Positions 1,814 to 46,461 of a DNA stretch of 50,241 nt are shown here, in pieces. Position 1 is the first letter of the stretch. The number at the start of each line of letters is the position of its first letter. Made by a program: the position numbers and the translations under genes. This DNA is from Candidatus Hodarchaeota archaeon. Lineage in GTDB: Archaea; Asgardarchaeota; Heimdallarchaeia; Hodarchaeales; Hodarchaeaceae. The stretch is taken from assembly GCA_016840035.1 (NCBI GenBank), contig JAEOTC010000146.1, forward strand, positions 1 to 50,241, in the 5' to 3' direction. Below the pieces are notes generated by a model. The model saw only the letters and a list, made by a program, of their open reading frames with translations. It did not search any database and was not told where the DNA came from.

Positions 1814-3237
1814 TTTGATTCGCCTCCAAAACGTACCTTGGAAAAGAGTAATTTAGGACCGCCATCACCAACAGGTAAAGGAAATTGACCTGCTTTTCCA
1901 CATCCTCCGAAATAGCCCGAAGAAAGTTCAAAATCTTTTGTTGCTCCTTCTACAAGTTTTAATAAATCAAGAATATTCCCTGTCAGGCTTACATCTTTGA
2001 GGGGGTACTTTTTCTCTCCATTTTCTACCCAGTAACCACGGACAGCTTTGAATAGAAAGTCACCGGATCCTTCAACTTGGCCACCACTAGTGCGAATGGC
2101 ATAAATCCCAGTACCAAGTTGCTCAAGCGCTTCTTCTTCCGTCATATCTCCAGGTGTGAAATAAGTATTCTTCATTCTAGGAATAGGGGGGTGTGCGAAG
2201 TTAATAGCTCGTGCATTTCCAGAATATTCAGTGTTTAACAAATTCGCTGTACTTCTTGATGTAAGGAAGTTCTTGAGAACTCCATCCTCCATCAGTACTG
2301 TACGAGTTGTTTTTACTCCTTCATCATCGTAAGGCAGGTATAATGGTGTTGATTTCCCATTGAATTCAGAGACTCCTTCGTCAATGATTGAAACGATATC
2401 AGCACCCAATTTCTCTCCAATCTTGTCGTGAATCGGACTTCCCTTGGTTACAATAAAGTCTGCTTCAGTTAAATGACCAAAAGATTCATGTGCTAAGACG
2501 CCGACGAGAGTATTTTCGCACAATGCTCGGAATTCTCCTGCTGGGGCTGATTTCGCTTTTAGTTGCTCTTTTGCCCAGAGTGCTGCATTTTTCCCTAGAT
2601 CCTCGGGTGTATTCTCACCTTGTTTATAGAATTCTAAACCAAACGATCCACCTCGTCCATCACCTGCGCGTACTAAATCCCCTTCTGGTGTTTTACTTAC
2701 AACCGTCGTTCGAAGATCAGAGATATAAGGTGACCATTGAATTTCAGTCCCATCTGAATTTGTAAACATCTTTTTACCTGATAATTCACCATACATTAAG
2801 ATGAGACTATTGATATCTTTTCCATATTCCTTAGCAGTAGACTCCATCCGATTTATTAAGTCCAATTTAACCTCGGATTCAGCTAGCCATGCAGGTTCCT
2901 TGAGTTTTGGTTCTAACATTTTTTTAATTGGAGATTTAGGTTCAATCTCGGATTTTACAATAACTTTATTGGAAGTGGCTTTAGCAATTCCCAAAGCATC
3001 CAAAGCGGCTTGTTCTAATGCTTTAGTATTAGTAATATCAGCAGAGAACGCATATGCTGAGGCACCTTTATAATAGACATTGAATCCGACCCCTGTTCGG
3101 TTCATTGTCTTTAACTGAGTAATCCGTCCATTTTCTTTGATAATTGTACGTAATAAGAGTTCATCGTAACGGGCATCAATATAATCTGCCCCTAAGGATT
3201 CACCCTTAGTAATTATCTTTTGTAAGACATCAAACAT
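1810..3237 (-). CDS. tldD: TldD family metalloprotease
   Basis: AHESFGHLTEAD (HExxGH), YDDEGV, PIPRMKNTY and C-terminal GGCGKAGQ; AAGGAG SD upstream. Confidence 0.93.
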   Translation of the reverse strand: MFDVLQKIITKGESLGADYIDARYDELLLRTIIKENGRITQLKTMNRTGVGFNVYYKGASAYAFSADITNTKALEQAALDALGIAKATSNKVIVKSEIEPKSPIKKMLEPKLKEPAWLAESEVKLDLINRMESTAKEYGKDINSLILMYGELSGKKMFTNSDGTEIQWSPYISDLRTTVVSKTPEGDLVRAGDGRGGSFGLEFYKQGENTPEDLGKNAALWAKEQLKAKSAPAGEFRALCENTLVGVLAHESFGHLTEADFIVTKGSPIHDKIGEKLGADIVSIIDEGVSEFNGKSTPLYLPYDDEGVKTTRTVLMEDGVLKNFLTSRSTANLLNTEYSGNARAINFAHPPIPRMKNTYFTPGDMTEEEALEQLGTGIYAIRTSGGQVEGSGDFLFKAVRGYWVENGEKKYPLKDVSLTGNILDLLKLVEGATKDFELSSGYFGGCGKAGQFPLPVGDGGPKLLFSKVRFGGESK

Positions 3238-5471: not shown

Positions 5472-5642
5472 AGTAGAATTCCTCTGAAATCTCTAATCCG
5501 AGATTAGTCAATGAAAATTGCTAAGAAGGTGATTTTTTAAGGATTCTGACATAGGCAAAGTCAAAATCGTCTATAGTATGATGTACAAGAGAGATAAGTT
5601 ATGATATGTCAATAATGGATTTTTTCTAGAGGGAATAAGTCG

Positions 5643-5666
5643 AAAAAAAGAAAAAGGAGGAGAAAA
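5643..5666 (-). terminator. T-rich terminator of the giant surface-protein operon
   Basis: Minus strand reads ttttctcctcctttttcttttttt immediately after the TAA of the 920 aa gene. Confidence 0.6.
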
Positions 5667-8429
5667 TTAGGGCGGTGGCTTTCTCCTAGACCTTTTTGAA
5701 CTTTTAGGCGTATCCCCCGTGCCTCCGCTATCACCTTTGCCACCAAGTCTATCTCTGATAGCTCCAACGCCCTTGTCAATAGCACCAGTCTTTTTGCCTG
5801 CGTAAATTACAGCTGCCCCACCACCACCAATGATTGCTCCACCAGCAGCCATGGGAATGATAGTATCCAAAAAGCTTGGCTTGTAAACGGTTGGGGTATA
5901 AGGAACAAAGGTGGGAACCGTTTCCCGAGTGATAAGTATTTCTTCTGGTCCAATAGTGATCCTTAGCTCGTAGCTAGTAGCCTCACCTTCATTCATCAGA
6001 ACACGGAAATAGATATCTGTGGAATTAAACACATCCGTATAAGTCTGATTCATGGGGAAAGGACCAACCGTTTCAGCTGTGCTGGCTGTTAGGTAACTAG
6101 AATCTATTACACTTCCATTTGGATATAAAAGTTCAAGATCTAAGTTTTGACCCTGACCAAAAGTAACCTCAACAATTATTGCAAGACCGGCAGGAAGATT
6201 TGTTACATAAAAATCATCATCCTTAACACGCATCTGCAAATTTGACATAGGATGTGTCACAGGTTCATCAGGAATATTGTTTGTATCGATGAAACTAACT
6301 TGTGTGGCTTGAGCTAGATAATCATTGTCTTCATAAACATCGTCCGTCTCTAGGATATCGATAGATAGATTATACTGATTGGTTAAACCGTCAATAACAC
6401 AGACAATGTAATACTTGCCTGTTCGGGTTGCAGTAAAAGATAATGTTTCATTGAACAGTGTTCTACTCTGTGCAGCCAAGGATTGATCATCAAATAGAAG
6501 ATCAAGATCAATATCATTTAGATATTCTTCAACACCCCATGTACCTGCGACATATGTAAGATTGATCTCAATTATGTCTGATGAAACCAGATAAACGTAG
6601 TACCAATCGTCGTCTTTATCACGAAGGATCATTTCAGAATAATCGCCTTCAGCAATAGGAGCAGCCGTTTGGGCATTGTCATTAGATTCGAACGCGTCAT
6701 CAAATTCGGCGAGAACAATGGACATGTTATATTCTACACCAATAGTTGCGTAAGAACCAGCTTTTCCTGCTACTCCAATATAATAAACATCGGTTCTCCA
6801 AGCCATGAATGAAACTGTTTCAGTATTAGAAAGAGATAACGCAGAGCTATCGATGATGGTACCGTCCGCGGTGGCTAATGCTAGATCTAAATCTCCTAAA
6901 GTATTATTAAACTCAATAATGATCGTGAGATGATCTCCAGAAAGAAGAGATATCACATAAAAGTCCAAATCACCTTCTTGGGAGAAAAGCCCACCAAAAG
7001 GATCGGCGGGAGTAGGCCGTATCTCTTGCGATATACTGGGTAATAGATAAGGATGGAAAATATCGTCGTTGTCTTCTGCCCAATCATCAATCTCATCCAT
7101 AGCTATAGTGAGGTTGTAATAGCGAGGATCAGTATTATCTCCTGTAATGTGAATGAGATAAGTAAGATCCTTATTTGCTCTATGGGGCCCTATTCTTAAT
7201 CCACCAAAAATCGGGACACCAGCGCCAATTAAACCCGCTGCAGTTTCATTCTCGTACAATGTCATCTGAAGATCTCCGATGAAAGAGAACCACTTAAGAT
7301 CGATCAAAATCCGTTCTGTGGCCGATGCGGATACTTTATACCAATCATCAGAGCTTGAAGAGATAACCAGTCCCGAATGATGGCCTTCAATCATGCCAAT
7401 AGCACTTGCATTGACATCATTGCCTCCTGCTTCAACTTCAAGCGAATCTTCAATGGTAATGTTCAATTGGTAGTAATTTACAGTATTTAGATAGCTGTTA
7501 TCAAAAAGAAGATAGTACCATCCGTCATAGGGAGTCTGAAAGGAAAGTGTATCGATATCATTCGCACCCATATCTTCGAACTTGGCAATATCATTCAAAT
7601 TACCATCAATCGCCTGTTCATCATAAACATAGACCCAAGGACCGTCAGGTTCGGGATTCCCTGGATCTACAAAGGAAGCAACCGTAAGTGTGACTTCTGA
7701 TTGTTTATAGAACCAGATACAATACCAATCTTGCTTGTTAAAGTCAGAGAACCCTGTTGTTAATGAAAATCGTAGATTAGAATATGAACCAGGGAGGATC
7801 TCATCATCACTTGCACCATCACGAGGATCATCAATCTCATCAATTTTATCATTTGGGCTAGTAACCTCCCATTGATCTTCTTGAACGACTGACATGTTAT
7901 AAGTAGTTGAATAATCATCTTGGTATCCAATAAATGGTTTCTCTGCAGTGACTTCAATGAAAAATATGTCATTCTGAGTGATATATACTGGTCCAATACC
8001 TTCCTCATTTCCATTTCCATTACTTACACCTACTGTAGTCCCATTATTCGCTGTAACTTTGATATCTATATCAGCTACCAATTCTGGATCTGAATAGGTA
8101 AACAATTGTCCATTAGTATCATAGACATTTGTTTGATTAAATTCTAAGAAAATAGAGAAGTAGAAACCAGTATAAACATCAAATCGGTATAAGTCTTGAT
8201 CCAAAGTGCTTACATTGAGAGGTGTATTGGGATCATTTTTTACTGAGCTAGTACCTAAGTTAAGTGCAGTTCCAAAATCGTAATCTGGACCTTCCCAGAC
8301 GCTATCTGGATAGGTATAGGGAGAAGCAGAAACCACATTAGGGGTCAATGGCGCAAAGACGAGTAAAAACTGAAGAAAGAAGACAAGTATCAACAGTTTT
8401 GTTATCTTGGACACATTTTTAGATTTCAT
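5667..8429 (-). CDS. Membrane-anchored surface protein with six tandem PPC (pre-peptidase C-terminal/collagen-binding-like) domains
   Basis: Signal peptide; repeated D-x-x-E-x-N-D linkers (DDWAEDND, DDAFESND, DDVYEDND), D-x-D-[WF]-Y, D-[LI]-D-L and Y-x-L-x-I motifs; Gly-rich TM plus basic tail; ATGA overlap and GGAGGT SD. Confidence 0.8.
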   Translation of the reverse strand: MKSKNVSKITKLLILVFFLQFLLVFAPLTPNVVSASPYTYPDSVWEGPDYDFGTALNLGTSSVKNDPNTPLNVSTLDQDLYRFDVYTGFYFSIFLEFNQTNVYDTNGQLFTYSDPELVADIDIKVTANNGTTVGVSNGNGNEEGIGPVYITQNDIFFIEVTAEKPFIGYQDDYSTTYNMSVVQEDQWEVTSPNDKIDEIDDPRDGASDDEILPGSYSNLRFSLTTGFSDFNKQDWYCIWFYKQSEVTLTVASFVDPGNPEPDGPWVYVYDEQAIDGNLNDIAKFEDMGANDIDTLSFQTPYDGWYYLLFDNSYLNTVNYYQLNITIEDSLEVEAGGNDVNASAIGMIEGHHSGLVISSSSDDWYKVSASATERILIDLKWFSFIGDLQMTLYENETAAGLIGAGVPIFGGLRIGPHRANKDLTYLIHITGDNTDPRYYNLTIAMDEIDDWAEDNDDIFHPYLLPSISQEIRPTPADPFGGLFSQEGDLDFYVISLLSGDHLTIIIEFNNTLGDLDLALATADGTIIDSSALSLSNTETVSFMAWRTDVYYIGVAGKAGSYATIGVEYNMSIVLAEFDDAFESNDNAQTAAPIAEGDYSEMILRDKDDDWYYVYLVSSDIIEINLTYVAGTWGVEEYLNDIDLDLLFDDQSLAAQSRTLFNETLSFTATRTGKYYIVCVIDGLTNQYNLSIDILETDDVYEDNDYLAQATQVSFIDTNNIPDEPVTHPMSNLQMRVKDDDFYVTNLPAGLAIIVEVTFGQGQNLDLELLYPNGSVIDSSYLTASTAETVGPFPMNQTYTDVFNSTDIYFRVLMNEGEATSYELRITIGPEEILITRETVPTFVPYTPTVYKPSFLDTIIPMAAGGAIIGGGGAAVIYAGKKTGAIDKGVGAIRDRLGGKGDSGGTGDTPKSSKRSRRKPPP

Positions 8430-11400
8430 TTTCGAGACCTCCGATCTAAAAAGGGTGTAGCGGGAATGATTAATACTCCGATTAAAGCTGCAATGGATAG
8501 AAATATTGGTTCTAAGGAGAAATTAGTTTTCTTGATAGAAACTGGAGGTGAACCTGGATCAATAGACACTGTATTTCCATCAGTTCCAGGTCCTAACTGC
8601 TTTCCAGACAATGGATCTTCCTGAGGAATAATTATGTCTGTTTTCCCATGAAGAACATATATCCATTTATCAGCAGTTCCAACTGCAACATCCTGAATAC
8701 CATCATCGTTGAAATCAGCTAATGCCATAGCAGTGATGAGATAGGAAGGAACAAAGGATGCCCAGACAACTTCTCCAGTTGTACCATCAAGAGCAAATAT
8801 ATTATCATGATTCAAGGTAAGAATATCCTTAATACCATCATCATTCATATCTGCAACAAGATATTTAGGTAGATAGAACGTTGAGCGATCTTCAAAGAAC
8901 CAGACAATATCAAGAAGGAGTCCAGACGTTGGTTTCCCCTCGAGTAGGTAGGTTCCATCCCCAAATGAATGGACTACAATCTCATCCTCATTATCTTCAT
9001 CAAAATCACCAATTGTCATATGAGAAAGACGGAAGGGAATGTGAAGATGTGTTTTCGCAGCAAGAACAACAGAACTTGACCAATCGTTGCTTCTATAAGT
9101 AGCTACAGTACCATTGCGTACTATAACAGCTATCATAGGTAAACCTTGATCCTGATCAAATGTACCAACCGCAAAATCTTGTACCGTGACTGGGAATGCT
9201 CGGATGTACGATCCATCTAGTCCATTCAATATCCAGATAGAATGTTCATAAACTGCTACTACAATATCAAGAGTACCACTGTTACTGAAGTCAGCAGCCT
9301 CGAATCGGGTGAATGGGGCAAAGGGTTGATAGGTTTGCCATAAGATCGATCCACGGCCAGTTGAAGTGTCCATGGTTACATTGTATAAGTCAAATCGACC
9401 CCAAAGATGGGTAAATCGGAAACCTAGACTAAGACCAAGTTCTTCGACCACACCATCTTGATTTACATCAATAAATTTCATTCTGTTTATGATAACAGGG
9501 CCTAGATAATCTTCCCATATAGGTCGTCCAGTTTCACCATTAACAATAACTAGTAATCCGCTCTTGAGCGCAATAGCTACATCACTATAACCATCATGGA
9601 GATGGAAATCTTCAACTGCAATTCGACTAATAGGAGAGCTTACGCGATATTTCCAGATCATATCACCTGTAGTGCCATCTACTGCAATTAAATAGCGAGC
9701 GCGATCACCAAAGATTATATCTTCATCTCCATCCGCATTGAAGTCGCCTATAGCTAATCTGGTGACCATACCCCGTGTTTCAAACGAGATAGAATCATCC
9801 ATTTGAACAGCAATATTCCGATACTGAGTTGGTTCATGACGGACATAGGAAAACATAGCTGAAAACCCTGCAGGAGTTAGTATTGCTATATCTGCAAATT
9901 TACCAAAGTTACCAATAGAATGGTAAGGAATGAAACCACTAAATTCGTAGAAGAAGAGAGGAGTACCTTGACTTCCATCAATAACTTTCAATTCCCCTGT
10001 GTGAGGATAATCATTTCCTTGGTAAATAGTGGAGAAAAGAAGGTCGTCATGCTCACCGTCATCATCTAGATCACCCATGAAAATATGGGAAGCATACGAA
10101 TTCCAGAGATAATATTCCCAGAGGGATTCTTGCAGGTCTAACCCAGAGAATGTCATTAGTTTAGTAGGACCAAAAGCTACATAACTGAAATCATCCATAG
10201 CCCAGTGGCCCTCCCATCCAGCTGGACCTATTCCTGAAACTTTTACTGTATAGATTCGGCCTAATGGATCAGTTAATTCAACGTATTGGGTTGGAGTAGA
10301 ATGAGCAAACGTGGCATTAGTCACAAAATTTCCATCACTATCATAAGCAGTCCATACATAATCGTATGGATACCCAGTACCCGTTCCTATCCAAGCTGAA
10401 ACAATATAAGCTCCAGAATCGATGTCCACATAATTATCTGTTTCAAGAGTATAAAACCCCATTACTCCAGAATGAGGAGTGACCACAGTAGCTGAAAGGT
10501 CGACAACCGTCCAACCCTGAAGAGCAGAATTATTCAAGTTGGAAAAGGTAAGCCCTTCGATTTTATGTGCGACACGTTCGCCTTCAAAGAAATCTTCCCC
10601 TGTGTATGTGAAAGAACCGCTTGAACCCATAATCTGGAACATGACATCTACATAAGAATCATCATTGAAGTCATATCGAAGAGTATCTTCATAATTTCCT
10701 ACAGAGTTCTCGATTGTCATATTCCATAATTGTTGAGATCTGTTGATTAAGCCATCATAGGCAAAAAGAGTCCCATTGTTAAGGATTAGGATATCTTCAT
10801 GAGCATCATCTGTTAAAGACATTTGAACAGCGGTTAACCCGAAATCAGTATCATTAAATTGATACTCATGGATGATAGACCCATTCACATCAATGTATGC
10901 AACCGCTCCTTTTTGTGAAATCGTATCACGACTTGAGATTAGCAATGTCTGATTACCATCTGAAATATGCTCGACCTTCCAACTATTATCGGCATTGTAG
11001 AAAAGTGTGGGAGATCCACTCAGGATATTACCATCATGACCACTTATGACGTATACACGGTTATTGAGACCAATAACCATATCAAGTGTAGGATCACCAT
11101 CCATATCCGCTAAAATAAACTCGTTGAGCTCGTATGTAGATTGATAGTCAAAGGGAGTTGGTGATTGCCAGCTTTCTGTAGGATTATTCTCATCGATGAT
11201 TAATCCATATAGTCTTAATGCTCCCCGTTCACCAGCAGCTTGCATATCATAATCGATTACTAAAAAGACTAGATCATCACGACCATTAACATTTAAATCA
11301 ACAGTTTTCATCCATAAGATTGCAGAATTCCTTGAAATTGAAAAATCAATGTTAGAAAGATCATATGCCCAAAATTCTTTCCCTGTGGTTCCGTGGAGAG

Positions 11401-14400
11401 CTTGAATTACTGGATAGCCTCCATAGTAATTAGCGTCAGGATCCATTAGTCCAAGTAAAACATCATCATTCCCATCATTGTCTACATCTGCTTCTACGAG
11501 TAACACTTCAGGACTTGGATCTCTCGTCCAATATCCTCCTTCATAGCTGTCGTTTTCCCAGAGGAGATCATAATCGATGTAAAGAAGATCGGTGGCAGGA
11601 GGATCGGTAACCATGCCTTCAAAGGAATATACATTACCTTGGAGACACGAGACGATAACTTCATCCATTCCATTACCATTCGCATCATACATGGCAATAT
11701 CGGTGGTTTGGGTAACAAACGAGTCAGTTTGCCAGGATTGATAGTATTCTAATACCTGGTTTACCTCATCCCAGTTACCACCAGTTTGAGAGACTTCTAC
11801 AAGGAACGCCTTACTACCAGAAGCAACTGCGATCTCCCGACGATAATCTTTATCACTATCACCAACGTCAATAGCACGAGCTTCGAAGAAGTCGAATTTA
11901 GTGAAGTCTGAGGAGGGATTCATTCCGAAGAAGATATTGTTATAGAAACCACGATCTGTCTCTGGAGTATGGAAATCTGCACCAAATTGTCTGCCAGCAA
12001 GATAACCAGCTGTAGCATAGCCAGTATTACCGTCGGAACCTGGATTATCAGTACCAGTGGCATCATCTCCATAAGCAACAAGGTTTCCTCCATAAGCGAC
12101 AATTCCTTCATCTTCAGATACGATTGGCGTATCATAATGAACTATAGGCGTGGGTGGAGTTCTACTTACATAAGATAGAGCACTACCACCTCCCACGGTG
12201 AGGTTATAGATACTTCCTACAGTTTCACCTTGATAACTTAACTCTCCACCACCAGTTGTCAAACTACCGCCAACAACTTCGACTAGTCCTGAATGTGCGG
12301 AAATATCCCCTGTAGAAATCTGTGTAGATGTTCCACTTACACTAGATGAGTAACCAAGATTAGAAGTCAATGCACTTGTGGCATATTTTTGTGGGGAAAT
12401 GCTAGCTAAGCTGAAGAAATCATACTGTGACATAAAGGAGTAAGCAAAGCCTCCAGTATAATGTGGAGTAATTGCAGGTCCGACAGAGATTAATGATTTA
12501 ACAATGATATTGGGATTTTGTTTTAAGACCATTAAACTAAACCCAAGGATTGGAAAAACTCTGTAAGTGGCAAACGGAGGCGTAGTTGTAACAGATTCAG
12601 GTTCACGCCAGGTATTTCCATCATCTTTAGAATAAGTAACCTGGAGAGCTCCTGAAGGGAGATTTCCATCTGCTTCGAATATTACCATCAGTGTTCTATC
12701 GGAAGTAACAGTTTGGGTAATTGAGGGATGTAATTCATCTATGGCATCGCTGGTAGCTCTGGAGTAGGGGAAGACTTCATCCCACATAGTAGAAGAATTA
12801 GATTTGGCAATCCAGAGATCATAGTCAATTTTAGCCTCAGAAAACATCATTCCTGTAAAAACAATGACCACGTCTCCACTTGTGGATCTTATTGCATCAT
12901 GGGAGACAGCACGATAACCCGATCGACCCCATGTAAGATTATTCTGCACTGCGGAATAGCCAATGTTGGGAATACGGGCTTGAGGAGGAGTGATACTATC
13001 TGCAGGGAATTGATGTTGCCAATAGATTCCTCCTGTTGACATGTTCATATAGGAGATTGCCACTCCTTGATCCTGATTGTCTCCATGTGCCCATACACTA
13101 GGATTATACAGGAAGTGGGATCCACCACTAATAGCTGTAGATCGTTCCTCATTAATAGTACTAAATATTGCGTTTTCCCAGTTTAAAACGCCGCCATTTT
13201 CCTTGAGCTCAAGTAACCAGATCCCTGCGCGTGTGTATGTAGAGAAAGTTAATATCCCTGAAAATGCCAAGAACACACGACCTTCTCTTGTTTGGAAGAG
13301 AGAAGGCTGCATTTCAAGTGAAGAGGAGGAGTAAGCGATACTACCATATCCACCCATAACCAATTGAATACGAGCAAAGATATTTTCACTTTCTAGAACA
13401 GGACCATGTTGAGACCAAGTATCACCAAAATCATTGCTAGTGGCATAATACAGATGAGATCCACCTTTAAAGATTTGAAGCCATTGACCACTCTGGAATC
13501 CAGTTGTCATATCATACTGAAGTTCGATGAAATCAGTATTGCGTAGAGCAAGTGCAACTTTCGTCTCTACATCAAACATAGCTTTCAATTTCATATAGGG
13601 GAAATTGACATAACTTGTGAGAATAGAACGTTCCAGATAGAAATTATCCCTGTCGTTTGGTCCTTTATCAGAATTCTCATAAATGACAATCCCTTTGAAA
13701 GTCCCTACAATGATCTCTTTATATTCATCATAATCCTGATTGTCGATTTCGATATCATAAACAGGATTATCTTCCATGAGATGCATAGGTGCCCACCATG
13801 AATAGGCATAGGTACCCACTTGATTTTCAAGGACGGCCACGAACCCATTATATTGACCCCACCAAGTTTTATTGACTCCTCCAAGAATGATTTCATTAAA
13901 AGTATCATTATCAGTATCAGCAACAGCAATAGATTCAATAGAAAGAGTTTTTACGGTATCGGAAGATAGAGGATTGCCAGGTATAAAGTACCTACCTCTT
14001 ACGGGATAAGGATCAACGAGGAAATTCTCATAGAATTGATCTGCACCATTTGACTCAAAAACAAAGAGGAAACTACCAGCTGCTAAGACAAACTCTCCAT
14101 AACCATTGTAGTCTAAATCACCACCAAAGGCTGCAGCTGTGAACTGGGTAATTCCTAAATCTTGGAAAAGTGGAGCCCAAGCAGATTGTCGCAAATCAGC
14201 CTGCCAGATCAAAGTATATTCATCATCCACGGAAACAAAACCATTATTTCTTTGTTCCCAAACAAATATAGATAATCCGGCAGTAGCTACCATTTCTAGG
14301 AAGCCATCGTTGTCCATATCAAGGCCTACGACGAGCTCCTCAATATGATCCCAGATAGTTCGATAAAATGTGCCACTTACGCCCTCTAATTGATCCCATG

Positions 14401-17400
14401 CATAAGGAGATTGAGTAGATAGTTCTGTATGCGTGATATCTTGAGATCTATACGCTCGTTTATACGTGTTATTGGTGAGGTGCTCAAATACATATAAATT
14501 ATTATCAAAATCACCAATAATAACTTCACCACGTCCATCTTGATCTAGATCACCTGTTTCAATGGTAAGAGTCCAACGCTCAAGTTCAGCCTCACTGGTC
14601 CAGGTTTCGAAAATATGGTACCCATAATTAGCTATAGGAGTGAGATGACTATCTGTTCCAGACTTCAAGTTAATTTCAAGACGAGAGATGATGGGATTTG
14701 TTCCAATCACATACGCATTGTGGTTCTCGTATTCTGCATACAATTGGATTAATTGATGTGTATGGGTATTATAGGTTGTAATATGACTTACTTTCCCAGT
14801 TTTATCATACGCAAATGAAGCATGGGTTAAATTATTAAACCTAAGGCCACCCCATGAGTTGGTATATAACCATTTGTTTTCCTCCCATTGAGGAGCCCAC
14901 TTATAGCCAACGTTTTCGAAATATGTAGTAGCGACAATTGTTTTTTGACGATTAGACCATCCTACTGTTAAATCAAGGTCACCATCACCATCATAGTCGT
15001 ACAACTCAGGAGAATCAAATAATTTGTTAGTAGCTTTAGTGTTTAAATCCTCAAAGTAATCGGGATCGAGAATAAACACAAGATTATTAACATTTTCAAT
15101 AAAGTAAACACGTCCATTAGTTAATACAATATCCTGATCACCATCGCCGTCTACATCACCAACAGCAGTTTCAGGCATCCGTTGGGATTTTTGGAGGGCA
15201 CGCTTCAATAAGCCAGTAATTTCAAGATCTTTTAGCTCAAATTTTCCAGTATACATTCCCAGTGGGGGAGTAGTAGGATCATAGGTATAGACATCTAGCC
15301 CAGCTGTGGCATAAGTCCCGACTGCTGGATCATACATTTCACCAGGAATATTACTAGCCCAACCCAACAACATGATTTCAGGGAAATAATTCAAGTCATG
15401 ATTGAAATCAACAAATCTGGGGGATATAGATTTTTGTTCGTAGAATGGATTGGCATTCACTGGAAGGAAGAAGTATTGAGCAAGCTCAGATAACTCATGG
15501 GTTAACTCTGGTACCACTATAAGTTTACCATTTGTGGTTCCAATGATCATATCGTTCTCAGGAATGTTTAATTCAAATATATCCTGATATGGCTCAAAAG
15601 CAGGAACACTTTCAAAGATCGCGTTGAAAAAAGAGCTAAAAAGCGAAAGCTGAGTAACTGAGGCAAATTCTCCATAAAATCCATTAGGAGCACCAAATTG
15701 CTCTGTCTCTAAGAGGGCAATCTTCTCATCAAGAGAAACTGGAACTTCCCACTCATCACGTAAAATTTGACTTTTTGTTTCGTTAAATAACCAAGTAGGG
15801 ATTTTTCCAGGGCTTTTAACTTCTACAATGTCCCAGATGTTGGTACCTTGGGTATAGCTATCGTTCGTGTATGAATTCCACAATAAATTGTATGCATGAG
15901 CATTAGAATCATACTCAAACATAATGATTTTACCATCACTAGTACCAAGGACGATTTTCTTACCTTCTGATTCACCAGAGGTATAGGCTTTATAATAATC
16001 TAGATCAAGACTTCCAATGGTAAGTGAGGTTGCAGCATCCATAGGACGGTAAAGAACAGGGGCATATCCACCTTTAATCATGAAATAACCATGATTAGTG
16101 ACATTAATTCTCATATAGCGGAAATGTGACCATTTCTTCTCGGAAAGAAGAGGATCAATATCTATCTGAAGATCATCGTCCCCAGGTGCAGAGGATACTA
16201 AAGCAAGTGAAATATCCTTATTTTCCACTAGAGCCCATTCACCATCTCCACGAGAGACTTCAAACGAAATTTTGTTCAATTGTGGTAATGTCCATTCATT
16301 AAAGCGGAGAACGACATCATATCCGAGTCCTTCCTCGGGAATAGCAACTAATCCATCACCCATCACTTCTTGATCCTTACCCCAATCGACAATGGCGCTA
16401 GCAAGAGTATCACGGGCATTGAATACAGTATAATTCTCTGCAGGGTCGTGATTAATGTCTCTAATGCCACCAATTTCAGTGTCATCGACAATATTATCTC
16501 CATTCATATCAATATATACACCATCTTCACCCCAAGGATCAAGCTTGCGATGAATTGCCATAGATGTATTTTTGGGCCATTGGGGTTCCCAACCATATGC
16601 ATGGGGTTCAGGAACTAAGACATCATCAACAACACTCACATAATATACATGTGCACCTGCAAGCATACTGTCATTGAGCGAGGAATAAGTATAGGCGTTG
16701 AAAGTGTCTGTAGGAGGAATTTCATTATTTGACCAGGTCATGAAATCAATATAATGGTTCAAATAGTGACCTAAACCTTCAAACCCTCCGAGTTGCCAGG
16801 ATTCAAGTGGTGCCCATAGTCTATGGGTAAGATAGCGTTCACCCACGATAGGTAAATCTTCATAATTTACTACGACAGTATCCTGACCAACCGCGATGTA
16901 TGCAATTTCATCTGGATCGTCGTCATCTAAATTATCGACGATAACTCGAATAACCGGTTTCCAAGTAGTATTACCACTGTCCCAATGATAACGATATGAG
17001 TTATCCTGAGTAAGAGGCCAAGGTTTTCCATTAATCTGTAAAATTGTTCCGTTATTTTCGTAGATATATACACGACCCAGTTCTGTGCCTACTACAATCT
17101 CGGGAAGAGCGTTATAATTCGTATCACCAGTGGAAAGAGAGAAAATCTTTTCACCAACTGGAATAGTTGCCTTCTCAGTATATTCTATCCAATGTTCATC
17201 ATTAAATGGATAACCAGAATGATTCGTATATTCGTAAATATGGATTTTCTCATCCCAAGAGCCTGCAATAACATCAGGTAGGTAGTCTTTATCGACATCA
17301 GCGATAGCTACACCCCAAACCTGTTGTAGTTTAGGACTGGTCCAAACATGGACAAATTGGTTCTCCATGTTATCATAAGGATCGTAAATATGTTCTTGTT

Positions 17401-17962
17401 CAAACACATAGACATGACCATCAGCACTACCAGCAGCAATTTCCATAAAATCATTGTTATCAGTATCTCCAAAGGCAATTGATAGTACGTCTCCAGTGAT
17501 TATCTCATCACCACTATCCCAGACTTTATCATATTCACGGGTGAAAGCATTCCAACGATAAATGTGAATTTCATTATCGTAGAGATATCCACCACCTACA
17601 GCAAGAAACTCGTTGTTAGGATCAGTGGTTATGCATCTAACAGCTGCTTTCGTTAACCATGGTTCCCAAACTTTTTGATACGACATTTCAGTATTCATGA
17701 GATGTTTTGTAATGTCCATATTTCCTGGTAGGAACTTATTCCCAACACCTGGGTCACTGTTAGAGTAAAACCCATCCTCAGTACTTTCAATTGAGGCTCG
17801 GAGTGGAGAGATAGGTTGATCCAAATCCAAGAAGAAATCTTCCCAGGTGGGTTCAAGCTGGAAAAGTCCAACGGATACGGCAGGACTGAAGACAAAAAGA
17901 CTTAGTACACCAATAGCGAGCATACGATAGATTATTTTCTTCATGGGTATTCCTCCTTGCAT
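8426..17962 (-). CDS. Giant (~3170 aa) FG-GAP/VCBS multi-beta-propeller surface protein with Asp-box domain and C-terminal TM anchor
   Basis: About 30 [GA]D-h-D-x-D-G-x-x-[DE]-h blades; Asp-boxes SNDFGDTW and SKDDGNTW; signal peptide MKKIIYRMLAIGVLSLFVF; TM IFLSIAALIGVLII. Likely true start is ATG 17944 (AAGGAGG 7 nt upstream). Confidence 0.85.
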   Translation of the reverse strand: MQGGIPMKKIIYRMLAIGVLSLFVFSPAVSVGLFQLEPTWEDFFLDLDQPISPLRASIESTEDGFYSNSDPGVGNKFLPGNMDITKHLMNTEMSYQKVWEPWLTKAAVRCITTDPNNEFLAVGGGYLYDNEIHIYRWNAFTREYDKVWDSGDEIITGDVLSIAFGDTDNNDFMEIAAGSADGHVYVFEQEHIYDPYDNMENQFVHVWTSPKLQQVWGVAIADVDKDYLPDVIAGSWDEKIHIYEYTNHSGYPFNDEHWIEYTEKATIPVGEKIFSLSTGDTNYNALPEIVVGTELGRVYIYENNGTILQINGKPWPLTQDNSYRYHWDSGNTTWKPVIRVIVDNLDDDDPDEIAYIAVGQDTVVVNYEDLPIVGERYLTHRLWAPLESWQLGGFEGLGHYLNHYIDFMTWSNNEIPPTDTFNAYTYSSLNDSMLAGAHVYYVSVVDDVLVPEPHAYGWEPQWPKNTSMAIHRKLDPWGEDGVYIDMNGDNIVDDTEIGGIRDINHDPAENYTVFNARDTLASAIVDWGKDQEVMGDGLVAIPEEGLGYDVVLRFNEWTLPQLNKISFEVSRGDGEWALVENKDISLALVSSAPGDDDLQIDIDPLLSEKKWSHFRYMRINVTNHGYFMIKGGYAPVLYRPMDAATSLTIGSLDLDYYKAYTSGESEGKKIVLGTSDGKIIMFEYDSNAHAYNLLWNSYTNDSYTQGTNIWDIVEVKSPGKIPTWLFNETKSQILRDEWEVPVSLDEKIALLETEQFGAPNGFYGEFASVTQLSLFSSFFNAIFESVPAFEPYQDIFELNIPENDMIIGTTNGKLIVVPELTHELSELAQYFFLPVNANPFYEQKSISPRFVDFNHDLNYFPEIMLLGWASNIPGEMYDPAVGTYATAGLDVYTYDPTTPPLGMYTGKFELKDLEITGLLKRALQKSQRMPETAVGDVDGDGDQDIVLTNGRVYFIENVNNLVFILDPDYFEDLNTKATNKLFDSPELYDYDGDGDLDLTVGWSNRQKTIVATTYFENVGYKWAPQWEENKWLYTNSWGGLRFNNLTHASFAYDKTGKVSHITTYNTHTHQLIQLYAEYENHNAYVIGTNPIISRLEINLKSGTDSHLTPIANYGYHIFETWTSEAELERWTLTIETGDLDQDGRGEVIIGDFDNNLYVFEHLTNNTYKRAYRSQDITHTELSTQSPYAWDQLEGVSGTFYRTIWDHIEELVVGLDMDNDGFLEMVATAGLSIFVWEQRNNGFVSVDDEYTLIWQADLRQSAWAPLFQDLGITQFTAAAFGGDLDYNGYGEFVLAAGSFLFVFESNGADQFYENFLVDPYPVRGRYFIPGNPLSSDTVKTLSIESIAVADTDNDTFNEIILGGVNKTWWGQYNGFVAVLENQVGTYAYSWWAPMHLMEDNPVYDIEIDNQDYDEYKEIIVGTFKGIVIYENSDKGPNDRDNFYLERSILTSYVNFPYMKLKAMFDVETKVALALRNTDFIELQYDMTTGFQSGQWLQIFKGGSHLYYATSNDFGDTWSQHGPVLESENIFARIQLVMGGYGSIAYSSSSLEMQPSLFQTREGRVFLAFSGILTFSTYTRAGIWLLELKENGGVLNWENAIFSTINEERSTAISGGSHFLYNPSVWAHGDNQDQGVAISYMNMSTGGIYWQHQFPADSITPPQARIPNIGYSAVQNNLTWGRSGYRAVSHDAIRSTSGDVVIVFTGMMFSEAKIDYDLWIAKSNSSTMWDEVFPYSRATSDAIDELHPSITQTVTSDRTLMVIFEADGNLPSGALQVTYSKDDGNTWREPESVTTTPPFATYRVFPILGFSLMVLKQNPNIIVKSLISVGPAITPHYTGGFAYSFMSQYDFFSLASISPQKYATSALTSNLGYSSSVSGTSTQISTGDISAHSGLVEVVGGSLTTGGGELSYQGETVGSIYNLTVGGGSALSYVSRTPPTPIVHYDTPIVSEDEGIVAYGGNLVAYGDDATGTDNPGSDGNTGYATAGYLAGRQFGADFHTPETDRGFYNNIFFGMNPSSDFTKFDFFEARAIDVGDSDKDYRREIAVASGSKAFLVEVSQTGGNWDEVNQVLEYYQSWQTDSFVTQTTDIAMYDANGNGMDEVIVSCLQGNVYSFEGMVTDPPATDLLYIDYDLLWENDSYEGGYWTRDPSPEVLLVEADVDNDGNDDVLLGLMDPDANYYGGYPVIQALHGTTGKEFWAYDLSNIDFSISRNSAILWMKTVDLNVNGRDDLVFLVIDYDMQAAGERGALRLYGLIIDENNPTESWQSPTPFDYQSTYELNEFILADMDGDPTLDMVIGLNNRVYVISGHDGNILSGSPTLFYNADNSWKVEHISDGNQTLLISSRDTISQKGAVAYIDVNGSIIHEYQFNDTDFGLTAVQMSLTDDAHEDILILNNGTLFAYDGLINRSQQLWNMTIENSVGNYEDTLRYDFNDDSYVDVMFQIMGSSGSFTYTGEDFFEGERVAHKIEGLTFSNLNNSALQGWTVVDLSATVVTPHSGVMGFYTLETDNYVDIDSGAYIVSAWIGTGTGYPYDYVWTAYDSDGNFVTNATFAHSTPTQYVELTDPLGRIYTVKVSGIGPAGWEGHWAMDDFSYVAFGPTKLMTFSGLDLQESLWEYYLWNSYASHIFMGDLDDDGEHDDLLFSTIYQGNDYPHTGELKVIDGSQGTPLFFYEFSGFIPYHSIGNFGKFADIAILTPAGFSAMFSYVRHEPTQYRNIAVQMDDSISFETRGMVTRLAIGDFNADGDEDIIFGDRARYLIAVDGTTGDMIWKYRVSSPISRIAVEDFHLHDGYSDVAIALKSGLLVIVNGETGRPIWEDYLGPVIINRMKFIDVNQDGVVEELGLSLGFRFTHLWGRFDLYNVTMDTSTGRGSILWQTYQPFAPFTRFEAADFSNSGTLDIVVAVYEHSIWILNGLDGSYIRAFPVTVQDFAVGTFDQDQGLPMIAVIVRNGTVATYRSNDWSSSVVLAAKTHLHIPFRLSHMTIGDFDEDNEDEIVVHSFGDGTYLLEGKPTSGLLLDIVWFFEDRSTFYLPKYLVADMNDDGIKDILTLNHDNIFALDGTTGEVVWASFVPSYLITAMALADFNDDGIQDVAVGTADKWIYVLHGKTDIIIPQEDPLSGKQLGPGTDGNTVSIDPGSPPVSIKKTNFSLEPIFLSIAALIGVLIIPATPFLDRRSRK

Positions 17963-17980
17963 TTAGATATCCCCCTCCTT
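17945..17980 (-). promoter_or_regulatory. Two tandem Shine-Dalgarno/ATG units at the gene A/gene B junction
   Basis: Minus strand: AAGGAGG-GGGATATCTAA-ATG-C-AAGGAGG-AATACCC-ATG; the stop of gene A abuts the first ATG. Confidence 0.65.
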
Positions 17981-20900
17981 TCGTTCAGGAAGTGAAAGCA
18001 GTTTCCTCAGATCTATGCTGTTTATCAGGAATAAAAGTACTCCTGTGAATCCAAAACCAAGAATACCACCCCAAACGAGGGGAGTAAAATCAACTGGTTT
18101 AACTAAGATATAGAATCTAACACTCTTCACAACTTCAGTATTATCAGGTCGTGTAGCAATCATCTCAAGACGATATGTGCCTTTTGGAAGAGTTAGAAGT
18201 TGACTCTCAAACTGATAATGCCGAGGGTTATACTCCATCTTTGTGAATTCATGTGAAACAGGACCTGAACTGAAACGATATCCTACAGAGGTAAAACTGG
18301 TAAAGTTAGTACCAGTGACAGTTACCAGATCTGTCTCGTAGACCGCTTCTATTGGTGAGGTGATCATTAGATCGTCTCGATAGATATCCAATGCATCATA
18401 CATCTCTGTTAAATTAGTAAATTCTAATGGATTTGTACCGACAAGATGTTCAAGCCCATCTCCCCAAGTATCGTTGTCAGTATCCCAATTAGCGGGATCT
18501 GTTCCAAGGATCTGCCATTCAAGTCCATCTAATAAGCCATCATAATCCGAATCTGGATTAAATGGACCACCGCCGGCTATCATTACCGTCGGAGTCATGG
18601 TACCATTGATAGAGCTATCCCCGAAAAATTCATACCCATCAGGAATACCATCATGATCGCTATCAAAGATCAACCCGTCTAGCGTGCCGTTAATGAGACT
18701 ATCGGCCTGCATCGGGTTACTATGATACGGTAACCCAGGATCGAGTTCCGCTCCATCGGGTAACAGGTCATCATCTGTATCTGGATCCGTTGCATTTGTC
18801 GGATACGTTGGGTTGTACGGCCCCATTAGATTAATTTTGAATTTGATACGTCCTGTTTCAATACCTATCGGAACGACTGCAGTGGTTTCATTACAGTCAA
18901 GTAAACCATCAGCATCAGTGTCGTTTTGTAAGGGATTAGTAAGATGGAAAAATATTTCGTCATAGTCACTTAATGTATCATTGTCGGTATCTACGACATC
19001 GGGGCGGGTAAAGTAAGTGTCTAATTCCTCTGAGTCACTTAAGAAGTCGAAATCTGAGTCAGCTAGAACTGGTGAGGTATTGTATATTCGTACAAAGTAG
19101 AATCCAACATAAGGATAGATAAGACTCGATTGATTACCAATCATTAATTCAACACCATCGATGATGGTATCACCATCGGTGTCATTAGAGAGGGGATCTA
19201 AAAGAATTGGGAATGGAATTTGATAGAAGTCAAAGACAACTTCAGGAACTTGACCTGAACCTAGATACAATTCCCAACCATCAGTGATACCATCTAAATC
19301 AGTATCACCGTAAGTTGGATTGGTACCATAATAGTATAGTTCATCACCATCGGAAAGACGGAAAGTATAGTCGATTCTTCCACCAGCGTAGACCACAAAG
19401 TATGTTATGGAGTCAAGATCGGTATCCCATTTGAGGGGGTCAGTCTTGATTCCATTATAGGTACCATATACCTCATCTCCATCTCGGAGATAGTCGCCAT
19501 CCCATACACCATTACCATTTTCATCCAGAGCTTCATCCCATTCTTCTAAACCATCATATCGACCATTCTGGTTAAGATCATTCCATTCTTCCGAATCAGT
19601 ATCATGATCATGAGGTTTGGTTCGGTAAATGAAAATCTCTTCATAGTCATCTAACCGATCGTTATCAGTGTCCTCGTCCATTGGATCGGTAAAGTAAACC
19701 ATTAATTCTGCCCAATCACCAATTCGATCTCCATCACTATCCACTGAAAATGGATTGGTATGATACCAATAAAGTTCTTCTCCATCAGAGAGTCCATCAA
19801 AATCAGTATCGGGGTTGGCTGGATGCGTTCCGTATTTGAAATACTCATCCCCATCAATGACCATATCATGATCTCCATCAGGGTGTAGCGGATTTGATCC
19901 TAGTAGAATCTCTTGCATATCACCTAAGCCGTCCCCATCCGTATCTGGATTGGCATAGTGAGTGTGATTTGACTGAGAACCACGTGTACCTTCTAGTCCA
20001 TCAATTAATCCATCATTATCAGTATCAGCGTCACAAGGATCACTTGGAGGATCGAGAGATAATTCATACCCATCAGAATTCAGAATTTCTGAGATTGGGG
20101 GATCATCATGTGGTTGATCGGGTGCACCTGTTCGATTGTAACTCATAATACCTGTATCTCCGTCAGTATCAGGGTTAACTGGATTTGTATAGGTTACATT
20201 TAGTACAGGTTCACCTTCAATCATGTAAATGATTGGCATACCTTTTACCTCCCAATAATCAGTCGTTAGGATCCAGGAACCATCAGCGATCTTGACATAA
20301 GCACTGGCATGACTTGGGGCAATACTTCCGTCCATTAATTGTTCCCAAGTATCATCATCAGTGTCAGAATCTAATGGATGAGTATATCCACCATTAAAGA
20401 TAATGGGTGGTGTATCTGTTCCAGCTTGTACCGATTCATTATACAACTCATCCAATCCATAATAAGGTCCAAATTCACCTTCTTCACCGTCAAGGAGTCC
20501 ATCACCATCGGTATCAGGATTTAATGGATCCGTGCGGTCATGATAGATTACACCACCAATCAAAACTGATTCTACCGAGGGAGTGACGCGCTGGATATCA
20601 TAGGCATGATTCACTTCATAGAAGTCATCAATACCGTCTTCGTCAGAGTCTGAATCCAATGGATCCGTTCCTATGATAATCGCTTCTTCATAGTCAGTTA
20701 ATCCATCCCAATCTGTATCTGGTTGCAATGGATTGGTTTTTGTATTATGATATTCGACAAAATCATCTAGACCATCAGAATCTGAATCCGGTAAGATGGG
20801 ATCTGTCTTTGAAGTCTGCGTCTCGAACTTATCTGTCAGTCCATCCCCATCTGTGTCTGGAGAATTGGGATTAAGACCAGGAGTATTCAATTCATCCTGA

Positions 20901-39200: not shown

Positions 39201-39689
39201 TAATTCGACACCTTTATTGTATTTTTCTTCCTTCCCCAAGAGATGACCTGGTGCAAGAAGATGCTTCCCATCAGCAAAGTATACATCTCCAATATCTTGA
39301 CTAATTTCATAGGCCACATTGGGATTATCAGCTAATTGATACAATTCTAACGACCAGGTTAATACTTTTAATTTTCCCTCTGGCTTGAGGTCCTCAAGCG
39401 TATCCCTCATCCTACCAGATAAATCCAAAAAAGTTGGTAATAGTTCTTTTATTGCTTTATGCTGTTCTTCCTGTAATAAGTGCTGATAATATGCTTGAGC
39501 ATATTCAAACATCATTGAGTTTTTTCCTGTTTTTTGAGAGGTAAAGAACGCTTTATTAAAAAGTTTGAGGCTTCGCTGACCATCTGGAATGCTTTTGGCT
39601 ACTTGGAAATAAGTCTTGGCAGCTTTTTCGAAATTTCCTGCACTTTCAAACGCCTGGGCTTTCTCTAATTCTTTTTGAACTTCTGACAT
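36213..39689 (-). CDS. Large all-alpha solenoid (TPR/SNAP-like) hypothetical protein
   Basis: 1158 aa with no TM or signal; recurring amphipathic helix pairs (AAKTYFQVA, ELATEYAEKAFEIF, EEANFLLTSAK...AIDQIYKATSMF); acidic then polybasic C-terminus. Confidence 0.65.
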   Translation of the reverse strand: MSEVQKELEKAQAFESAGNFEKAAKTYFQVAKSIPDGQRSLKLFNKAFFTSQKTGKNSMMFEYAQAYYQHLLQEEQHKAIKELLPTFLDLSGRMRDTLEDLKPEGKLKVLTWSLELYQLADNPNVAYEISQDIGDVYFADGKHLLAPGHLLGKEEKYNKGVELFTKAIDAYQSVSLDKTVMEKILNVKLEKVSRFIDINRPAEAMEDTSYLMQFFKAQGPDVQPYPQKELSLKIAQLLALKALKKAQKQVDIARVLQKTASAGFIEADAVTRVAPFLWSLTQVFDNANHQEDFENTIVDAFEAALKYENKEITEEILEYLFNQGKTHCENILNSRMLLVKKGSIEFHNNKGVLYLLQRINLAKKADDKIVDQTTEYLFNYGQLMFEKKLRLRSLPYFEYCAQSWWDLYQESGRAREITTFLQSNFGELLSEGKIDAAATQLISIVDLFTYFGDIAMAGDTAFSFAQTLGQEEKLTYEFDFLERSFSNFQKIDAKDKLQALVEYLIERSDPLYSQFESKHESLRKFLKLMNETGTAISSEKQGEVLAAITYKTINSNLIELATEYAEKAFEIFQSFNKELAADFYFKIGTQLLESNPQLAVEFISKSTQVAADEKELDQIVLRNLQYLMDQTLASSVLATKLFIINQLEQIASLVHKSAIYNAFLFPFVQHLAENAVEPKYYSEINNFLLKDFTIYYEQDKSHPHLQELVKWTNDFILGLEQTSVITEMILLTLKFHEKLNMPDQFISFIWPVMENLSSRKEDYHNAITIYGQTFSFLKRLEAENEEFTEKVVSLLDRDQKSRIHDEQFDEAWAILQALYKILTESDMKKQAVRLYKDNAILFAPLRLDLALTMWAQAGEEASSIENYKEIVTEICSEIKEHGLKLYKEQHHQPAVIQLYNQLIDLSLSVSNMQSVVENNVDRAKFLLMRGDFPSLLEWGEKSLELSIEKRLEDLLVEISNMFYSAGRSLLEEDPETAISLINTASEKLKAFGEKGKNIYSSKIAEIYEELYRSPVGNQLAISERENLVRYFKENNQQQEEANFLLTSAKIALTEGKINDAIDQIYKATSMFKELEDNEGLSEIVTFCLRTASKFPVGSPEYNSLSQHAAMIQDEGITLSDEQSQEAFGDLFDGMLDDMTSLFDPKEKRKRMKQKKGKK

Positions 39690-46448: not shown

Positions 46449-46461
46449 AGGAGGACATGAA

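Follow-up and report, generated by a model that had tools for sequence, protein, structure and literature searches.

What do three giant, abutting genes do for the Asgard archaeon that carries them? The genes occupy positions 5,667 to 24,637, on the minus strand, of a 50,241-nucleotide stretch of DNA from Candidatus Hodarchaeota archaeon (assembly GCA_016840035.1, contig JAEOTC010000146.1; the whole stretch is referred to here as the window), and we name them A, B, and C in the order of transcription. The best explanation as a whole, in which we place moderate confidence, is that A and B constitute an Asgard-restricted but patchily distributed module with a role in the cell coat or in contact, and that C is an accessory to this module. 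The locus is laid out as follows (aa, amino acids; ORF, open reading frame).

17,963..24,637, minus strand: gene A, 2224 aa, with a signal sequence, an alpha/beta domain, a helical tract, an amphipathic beta-sheet block, a TSP3 region, a transmembrane segment, and a tail (ORF, Pfam, AlphaFold2)
8,426..17,962, minus strand: gene B, 3178 aa, with a signal peptide, FG-GAP/VCBS-type beta-propellers, an Asp-box domain, a Ser/Thr/Gly-rich stretch, a transmembrane segment, and a 5-aa basic tail (ORF, Pfam, motifs)
5,667..8,429, minus strand: gene C, 920 aa, with a signal peptide, six PPC-like repeats, a Gly-rich transmembrane segment, and a basic tail of about 40 aa (ORF, Pfam, hhalign)
24,638..25,031, minus strand: upstream region of 394 bp, from A to a divergent NAD-dependent epimerase gene (sequence read; epimerase Pfam match)
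5,641..5,666, minus strand: T-rich run (T5, T7) directly after the C stop codon (sequence read)

What ties A to B? Among 40 relatives of the same class, searched with the A head (residues 45-1232) and the N-terminal 1300 residues of B, 20 contain a strong match to A, 19 of these 20 also contain a strong match to B, and none has B without A. In every intact locus (approximately 16 loci were read) the two genes are adjacent, with a gap or overlap of at most 20 nucleotides (nt). The order is A-B in L010-L015, L017, L018, L050, L051, L054, L055, and L059, whereas in L009 and L016 it is reversed (B'-A') and the two genes overlap by ATGA; B'-A' is a second, paralogous locus that is present in many genomes. 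In one genus A and B are fused as a single ORF of 4881 or 4836 aa (L052, L053), and this genus has additional ORFs of 4271-4901 aa. Each fused ORF runs from A and the A transmembrane segment through a Lys/Ser-rich linker of 55-70 aa to a second transmembrane segment, equivalent to the B signal sequence, and then through B to a final transmembrane segment. With this layout, the large domain of B would face the same side of the membrane as that of A, and the two proteins would be tied in a 1:1 ratio. Because A and B co-occur, are adjacent in both orders, and are fused, the genomic record strongly indicates that they act as one functional unit. The stoichiometric A-B-C machine that had been envisaged in an earlier reading of this DNA, hereafter the original prediction, thus survives as an A-B unit (19 of 20 genomes, both orders, fusion), while C is confined to the window's order.

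The pair is widespread but far from universal. When searched with a profile of the A beta block, 90 of 400 Asgard genomes contain the family, which is represented in 37 of 85 genera; within the window's own genus it is present in 12 of 21 genomes. With this patchy distribution the pair is no general Asgard requirement. The carriers are labeled, by record titles and cluster names, as Hodarchaeota/Hodarchaeales, Heimdallarchaeota (including Heimdallarchaeum), Thorarchaeota, Hermodarchaeota, and Kariarchaeaceae, and the carriers in Lokiarchaeia include Ca. Harpocratesius repetitus and the cultured Ca. Lokiarchaeum ossiferum, in which NEF87_004127 (annotated "hypothetical") is A and NEF87_004126 ("VCBS repeat-containing") is B. 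Across lineages the A heads are 24-30% identical. Several divergent paralogue pairs are found per genome, among them short pairs in which A'' is approximately 1550 aa and B'' approximately 1830-1940 aa; A'' keeps the alpha/beta domain, the beta block, and the TSP3 region and drops the helical tract, and B'' keeps the first propeller and the 1000-1450 region.

Several further observations concern the same family. On the closed chromosome CP070695.1 (G010:C1:1643000-1681000, L009/L010), A-B-C, B'-A', and a beta-helix protein stand in tandem on one strand over approximately 37 kb. Outside the window, the window's genome contains a 551-aa ORF with 39% identity to A residues 21-527 (G000:C175:3418-4905) and an ORF of 1788 aa that matches the A beta block weakly (E 1e-8; G000:C3:20923-21456), the latter with counterparts of approximately 1790-1800 aa in genomes G004 and G020; these ORFs may derive from a second pair that has become fragmented and from a third, distant family. 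Two short contigs with A-head fragments carry bacterial labels: one, 82% identical to the window's A, is binned as "Candidatus Aegiribacteria sp." (L027), and the other as "uncultured bacterium" (L037). Both are most likely mis-binned Asgard contigs. In the Lokiarchaeia loci L050 (18219-19625) and L051 (1-1333), a homologous gene of 444-468 aa lies just downstream of B; its products have near-identical N-termini with LEKIRVLGENGK, and the gene was not seen beside heimdallarchaeial loci.

How firmly are the genes joined in the window itself? The arrangement is the one originally described, namely three co-oriented, abutting genes of approximately 6300 aa: by the ORF list and translations, A, B, and C sum to 6322 aa, the B start codon ATG abuts the A stop codon TAA with zero spacing (17963/17962), and the end of B and the start of C share an ATGA overlap (8426-8429). 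A Shine-Dalgarno-like site, AAGGAGG, precedes the B ATG, a second good site, CAAGGAGGAATACCC, lies ahead of the conserved B residue Met7, and GGAGG lies 9 nt upstream of the overlap; the Shine-Dalgarno site of A itself is weak, so that the "strong" sites claimed for the locus are those of B and C. Translational coupling of the A and B genes is strongly indicated by this arrangement. The upstream region, anticipated at approximately 390 bp and found to be 394 bp, presumably contains the promoter, and the T5/T7 run, which does follow the C stop codon as reported, is likely an archaeal oligo-T terminator, to judge from its letters and position. Contigs assembled from public runs span both gene junctions with no differences or indels, the best run possibly being the source of the assembly; the four public runs that contain the locus are marine-sediment metagenome DNA from one study. 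Read joints appear in short contigs only, with sides of at most 23 letters in every case, and were treated as artefacts of repeats or other organisms. We also considered horizontal acquisition and rejected it: the G+C content of the locus (0.39-0.41) is not clearly separated from that of its flanks (0.35-0.39). The assignment to a probable Asgard archaeon is borne out by the nearest named loci, which belong to Candidatus Hodarchaeota/Hodarchaeales metagenome-assembled genomes with 92% identity over the A head and 80% over C. The flanking genes (two TldD/PmbA genes, GNAT-SCP2, epimerase, hydrolases) are unrelated to A-B-C and are not kept beside A-B in the other loci read.

The three products share a plan. 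Hydropathy agrees with the earlier assignment of an N-terminal signal-type segment and a C-terminal hydrophobic segment to each of A, B, and C, and Pfam assigns a distinct Ca2+-type repeat to each, as had also been proposed: TSP3_bac in A, FG-GAP_3 in B, and PPC in C. All are acidic in composition with few Cys residues, and short basic tails follow the transmembrane segments. For A and B, the analysis strongly indicates giant proteins that cross the membrane once and carry large Ca2+-repeat domains. In line with the original prediction, no enzyme family of Pfam or NCBIfam exceeds its cut-off in A, B, or C. Sequence searches of the PDB with the three proteins returned no match, the NCBIfam models of CTERM sorting signals match none of them, and no match to archaeosortase PF09721 was found in the genome, which is 87% complete.

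Protein A is the larger puzzle of the pair. Its features are listed here, with Kyte-Doolittle hydropathy (KD) and AlphaFold2 predicted local distance difference test (pLDDT) values where these were the basis.

24,506..24,577, minus strand: residues 21-44, N-terminal hydrophobic segment, signal peptide or signal anchor (KD 2.18)
23,624..24,448, minus strand: residues ~64-338, three-layer alpha/beta domain followed by short strands (AlphaFold2 pLDDT ~88; flavodoxin/caspase-like; no His/Cys dyad)
21,818..23,620, minus strand: residues ~340-940, helical tract of about 600 aa (AlphaFold2; least conserved part of A; lost in short paralogues)
20,993..21,805, minus strand: residues ~945-1215, about 11 antiparallel amphipathic strands of 16-19 aa (AlphaFold2 pLDDT 76; most conserved part of the head)
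18,443..20,932, minus strand: residues ~1236-2065, TSP3-type Ca2+-binding repeat region (Pfam TSP3_bac; at least 21 DxDxDGxxD motifs; invariant Asp columns; very strongly conserved)
18,008..18,082, minus strand: residues 2186-2210, C-terminal transmembrane segment, followed by a 14-aa charged tail (KD 2.17)

The A orthologues of other lineages begin with ordinary short signal peptides. The stalk-like part of A is readily assigned: TSP3_bac scores 44.8 bits against a Pfam cut-off of 25, and 21 DxDxDGxxD motifs were counted. The head matches no Pfam family and no PDB sequence, an ESM-Atlas feature search with it gave no usable match, and among 1.84 billion proteins it retrieves only 86 cluster representatives at E <= 1e-3. 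We therefore describe it from an AlphaFold2 model built on a 32-sequence alignment (mean pLDDT 72). The alpha/beta domain gives VIA Z scores of 10.7 to the SAVED-CHAT structure 8tl0 and 8.9 to legumain (5obt), and these matches are tied with PBP/LacI and other flavodoxin-like folds. Only aromatic residues, Gly, and Pro are invariant in this domain. A clan CD peptidase was rejected, since the His-Cys dyad is absent and no His or Cys is conserved in the domain, which is thus at most, as modeled, an inactive caspase-like fold. The beta block modeled alone resembles outer-membrane beta-barrels, which make up all of the VIA top 50 (Z 7-11, with CymA at 11.0); bacterial outer-membrane barrels in the Atlas reach template-modeling (TM) scores of 0.44-0.52, and the Foldseek matches to FepA and EspP are partial superpositions with TM scores of 0.2-0.4 and root-mean-square deviations (rmsd) of 8-20 Å. 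In sequence, the strands of the block alternate a strongly hydrophobic face with a small or polar face. When the whole head is searched, lipovitellin and MTP stand at the top of the Foldseek list with E values of 1.5e-3 to 8e-3, yet the TM score is approximately 0.1 and the rmsd 36-39 Å; the matches to lipovitellin/MTP/apoB and to Tc-toxin A subunits (TM scores 0.04-0.11, rmsd >35 Å) were set aside. For the beta block alone the sole lipid-transfer match is ApoB, at Foldseek rank 50 with probability 0.04, and VIA and the Atlas return none.

Protein B is dominated by propellers, and its features are the following.

16,673..17,731, minus strand: residues ~78-430, first FG-GAP propeller (highest conservation within B)
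13,673..15,415, minus strand: residues ~850-1430, conserved FG-GAP propeller region, kept in short paralogues (motifs, conservation)
12,473..13,525, minus strand: residues ~1480-1830, BNR/Asp-box-like domain (two SxDxGxTW boxes, FRIP absent; Pfam BNR_2 below threshold; motifs)
8,663..11,875, minus strand: residues ~2030-3100, further FG-GAP propellers, poorly conserved across lineages (Pfam, motifs)
8,444..8,524, minus strand: residues 3147-3173, C-terminal transmembrane segment (KD 2.32)

The N-terminal hydrophobic segment of B spans residues 10-35 by hydropathy. FG-GAP_3 scores 78.5 bits and FG-GAP 18.9 bits in Pfam, other propeller families match weakly, and 23 FG-GAP-type loops (DxDxDGxxD/E) were counted. 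The first propeller is 46-51% identical across families, compared with approximately 28% for B overall. A sialidase/BNR propeller was considered and rejected, as BNR_2 scores 17.1 bits against a cut-off of 31.4 and the two Asp-boxes are accompanied by no FRIP motif.

Does C belong to the same unit? The features within this protein are these.

5,940..8,318, minus strand: residues 38-830, six PPC-like repeats with invariant E-x-N-D linkers between them (hhalign; invariant columns)
5,796..5,861, minus strand: residues 857-878, Gly/Ala-rich C-terminal transmembrane segment (KD 1.77, orthologues 1.85-1.99; conserved KKTG...RKPP tail)

The N-terminal hydrophobic segment spans residues 6-33 by hydropathy. 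PPC scores 55.2 bits in C against a Pfam cut-off of 25.9, with repeats 4-6 matching directly. When profiles built from nine orthologues are compared with hhalign, the six segments of approximately 120-150 aa prove mutually related with 92-98% probability; a BLAST self-comparison of C did not detect the repeats. Full-length C is found in families f1 and f2 only, both of the window's order, and other Asgard genomes give PPC-level matches of at most 56 bits at unrelated positions. Likewise, a collection of 5.8 billion proteins contains only 18 clusters of C, named "hypothetical" or "PPC domain-containing" and drawn almost entirely from Hodarchaeales or Heimdallarchaeota records. Elsewhere the third slot is filled differently: membrane-anchored NosD-like beta-helix proteins follow the pairs of L009, L012, and L014, and the other A-B or B'-A' pairs are followed by a 994-aa protein with no family assignment or by nothing related. 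Because full-length C is limited to one order and its slot is occupied by other genes in other lineages, the conserved core is A-B and C is an order-specific accessory. We note that the C homologues P0112 and P0113 carry a precomputed PF01105 (emp24/GOLD) match beside PPC, which may reflect chance similarity between beta-sandwiches or a genuine GOLD-like repeat.

What, then, might A-B do? When A and B are compared across the class, conservation is highest in the A TSP3 region, where it extends to individual spacers, in the A beta block, and in the first B propeller, and it is lowest in the A helical tract and the C-terminal B propellers. This pattern argues for fixed contacts, either between subunits or with a conserved partner, and not for rapidly evolving ligand recognition at the tip. 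We propose that A and B are neighbors in the cytoplasmic membrane, each with its large domain facing outward, that they probably form a 1:1 hetero-complex, and that Ca2+ bound in the TSP3 and FG-GAP loops would stiffen the pair into a tall surface structure. In the window's order, C would probably add a ligand-binding arm, consisting of six PPC-type domains on its own membrane anchor. The most likely role for the assembly would be as a component of the irregular Asgard coat that makes contact with surfaces, particles, or partner cells. Such a role has a cellular setting: L. ossiferum cells carry "complex surface proteins" of unassigned identity (PMC9834061), a cultured heimdallarchaeion has an amorphous coat (10.1101/2025.11.06.686947), and cultured Asgard cells crawl while adhered to a surface (PMC13716822); A, B, and C are named in none of these papers. 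A complex prediction with the A alpha/beta domain, the A beta block, and the B first propeller scored 0.00 and has no weight either way. A bolder version, in which the A-B heterodimer is a 1:1 receptor and the main Ca2+-dependent attachment device of the lineages that carry it, serving crawling adhesion or syntrophic partners, with the outer-membrane-barrel-like sheet of A touching or entering a foreign membrane or lipid, strikes us as improbable.

A number of points weigh against a role of A-B in coat and contact. The pair is missing from approximately 78% of the sampled Asgard genomes, including whole families (none of 12 genomes in f4 and none of 135 in f20), which excludes it as the common coat of all Asgard archaea and as a universal means of contact. 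The modules predicted to lie farthest from the membrane, the first propeller of B and the beta block of A, are the most conserved, which is unusual for adhesins with variable targets and is more readily explained by a conserved internal partner or by a structural role. The many N-glycosylation sequons reported for the locus do not hold up as stated: NxS/T motifs number 17 in A against 12 +/- 3 in shuffled sequences and 29 in B against 24.5 +/- 4.5, and only C is enriched (17 against 7.8 +/- 2.6), so that sequon enrichment was rejected as support for glycosylation of A and B. The membrane topology is predicted from hydropathy, domain types, and the fusion layout, and the surface role of A-B(-C) is that of a candidate put forward from sequence. 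Lastly, cultured Hodarchaeales have a different, identified S-layer protein (10.1101/2025.02.26.640444), and A-B is therefore not the S-layer itself.

Could A-B(-C) instead be a load-bearing or spacing scaffold of the coat, for example in protrusions or in setting a fixed coat height, that engages no external ligand? Conservation is strongest in modules far from the membrane and throughout the TSP3 region, spacers included, which fits fixed contacts within or between subunits, and thick, irregular Asgard coats of unassigned composition have been described (PMC9834061; 10.1101/2025.11.06.686947). However, the pair is patchy even within the window's genus, genomes carry multiple divergent paralogue pairs, and binding-type accessory genes (PPC, beta-helix) accompany A-B; the three together therefore look like a variable interaction toolkit rather than an essential scaffold, and we regard the scaffold as unlikely, if worth keeping in view. 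The proposal that A, B, and C are physically independent surface proteins, co-regulated and kept together for expression only, starts from the facts that the case for a putative A-B complex is a genomic one and that large surface-protein genes are commonly clustered. It must then accommodate an adjacency that outlasts inversion of gene order between lineages whose A heads are only 24-30% identical, a recurrent A-B fusion in which the topology is preserved, and the coincidence of A and B in presence and absence, all of which makes it rather improbable.

Two further explanations give the complex a different target. In one, the A head is a device for contact with hydrophobic ligands or membranes that serves contact-dependent exchange or attack: its barrel-like sheet, hydrophobic on one side, would together with the helical tract bind lipid or enter a foreign membrane, and docking would fall to B and C. 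The alternation of hydrophobic and small or polar faces along the strands would suit such a device, all of the top structural matches of the beta block are membrane beta-barrels, and lipovitellin and MTP come first in the whole-head Foldseek search (E ~1.5e-3). The lipid-transfer matches, with TM scores of ~0.1 and rmsd >35 Å, carry no weight, however, the barrel matches are partial (Z <= 11, Foldseek TM scores of 0.2-0.4, rmsd 8-20 Å), and the helical tract is dropped by the short paralogues; we consider a membrane-contact device highly improbable. In the other, A-B-C captures extracellular polymers for feeding: glycans or proteins would be bound by the propellers, the Asp-box domain, the PPC array, and, in other lineages, the pectate-lyase-like beta-helices, with separate hydrolases and the many ATP-binding cassette (ABC) importers making use of the catch. 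While PPC, BNR-like, and NosD/beta-helix modules usually accompany secreted hydrolases and polysaccharide-binding proteins, and genes of a peptide ABC transporter lie in the same window, no hydrolase domain was found in or beside A-B in any locus read, no FRIP or other sialidase signature is present, and the flanking genes are not conserved, leaving little to recommend polymer capture at all. We return to the patchy A-B module with C as its accessory and a likely role in coat or contact.

How does A-B compare with known adhesion systems? The likeness to integrin alpha and beta chains is the most apparent. Like them, A and B are both predicted to be single-pass proteins with short cytoplasmic tails, B consists of FG-GAP propeller blades with Ca2+ loops, in A a long stalk bears an alpha/beta domain at the N-terminus, and a paired unit is implied by the coupling and fusion of the genes. 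The differences are numerous. The A alpha/beta domain is not detectably a VWA or beta-I domain and shows no metal-ion-dependent adhesion site (MIDAS) motif: Pfam gives no VWA match, the VIA top 50 consists of CHAT, PBP/LacI, and REC folds, with families outside this fold list possible, and the domain has no invariant Asp, Ser, or Thr. The A stalk is made of TSP3 repeats, whereas that of integrins is made of EGF repeats; the propellers of B number at least five, while the integrin alpha chain has a single one of seven blades; the tails of A (14 aa) and B (5 aa) contain neither GFFKR nor NPxY; and the non-covalent contact between propeller and beta-I domain that joins the integrin heads would have at most a putative counterpart in A-B. 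The resemblance is therefore at most an analogy. Similarly, A shares TSP3 repeats with thrombospondins, but the matching model is the bacterial type, with no match to the eukaryotic TSP_3 listed, and neither TSP_C nor a coiled-coil domain is present among Pfam matches at E <= 0.01. The resemblance to integrin and thrombospondin is one of widespread repeat modules only.

Bacterial and archaeal proteins offer nearer parallels in kind. Long runs of bacterial-type TSP3 repeats also characterize CglD and MtsC/MtsD of Myxococcus xanthus, which are surface proteins of adhesion and cohesion. Against the CglD model (NF033765), however, A scores 149.3 bits with a cut-off of 400, from its repeats only, and the scores for the MtsC and MtsD models are likewise below their cut-offs (19 bits against 350 and 15.8 against 800). 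CglD, moreover, is an outer-membrane lipoprotein of a diderm and has no counterpart to the A head, the transmembrane anchor, or the propeller partner. The C repeats recall the PPC/collagen-binding domains of clostridial collagenase ColG in that they match PPC and carry the E-x-N-D...A linker motif, which in the collagen-binding domains of collagenases binds Ca2+. In contrast to ColG, C has no protease domain, contains six tandem copies, is anchored in the membrane, and has a conserved cytoplasmic tail. Among Asgard proteins, the Nerearchaeum "badge" resembles A and B as a large surface protein with big beta-sheet domains that has been proposed to account for densities in cryo-electron tomography; it is described as one protein whose homologues occur in every Promethearchaeaceae genome (10.1101/2025.07.22.663070), the description mentions neither a partner nor a stalk nor a gene pair, and our comparison of it with A is by description only. 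As had been anticipated, no characterized S-layer or adhesin locus matching A-B-C emerged from PDB sequence or literature searches. The A-B pair is described in no paper that we found (queries combined Asgard with integrin, thrombospondin, and FG-GAP, or used L. ossiferum tags and accessions), and the supplements of PMC9834061 contain no entry for NEF87_004127 or NEF87_004126. A-B is thus undescribed in the literature searched, but the kind of protein it represents, the giant Ca2+-repeat surface protein, is already known.

Why does this pair matter? In cryo-electron tomograms, all cultured Asgard archaea have one membrane, which is overlain by irregular protein structures of unassigned identity, and the crawling and partner contact of Asgard cells require adhesion molecules that have so far gone unnamed. 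A-B is among the few concrete, conserved candidates; it is restricted to Asgard archaea as far as has been searched, and it is of a size that would be visible in tomograms. The pair is present in the cultured L. ossiferum, and the three-gene form occurs in the order proposed to be closest to eukaryotes. Because A and B are large and have a cultured carrier, the question can be addressed with existing cultures and data sets. The A head adds a module of approximately 1200 residues with no family assignment, and the patchy distribution of the pair limits any claim concerning eukaryogenesis.

Finally, we note two other genes in the window. On the plus strand, positions 46414-48324 encode an OppC-type ABC permease (BPD_transp_1, OppC_N) with an inserted FG-GAP_3/BBS2_Mid-like domain of approximately 150-250 residues between the N-terminal transmembrane segment and the permease core, an unusual propeller-type extracellular module for a peptide transporter. 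On the minus strand, positions 36213-39689 encode an ORF of 1158 aa that matches no Pfam family at E <= 0.001 and that the original prediction described as an alpha-solenoid.

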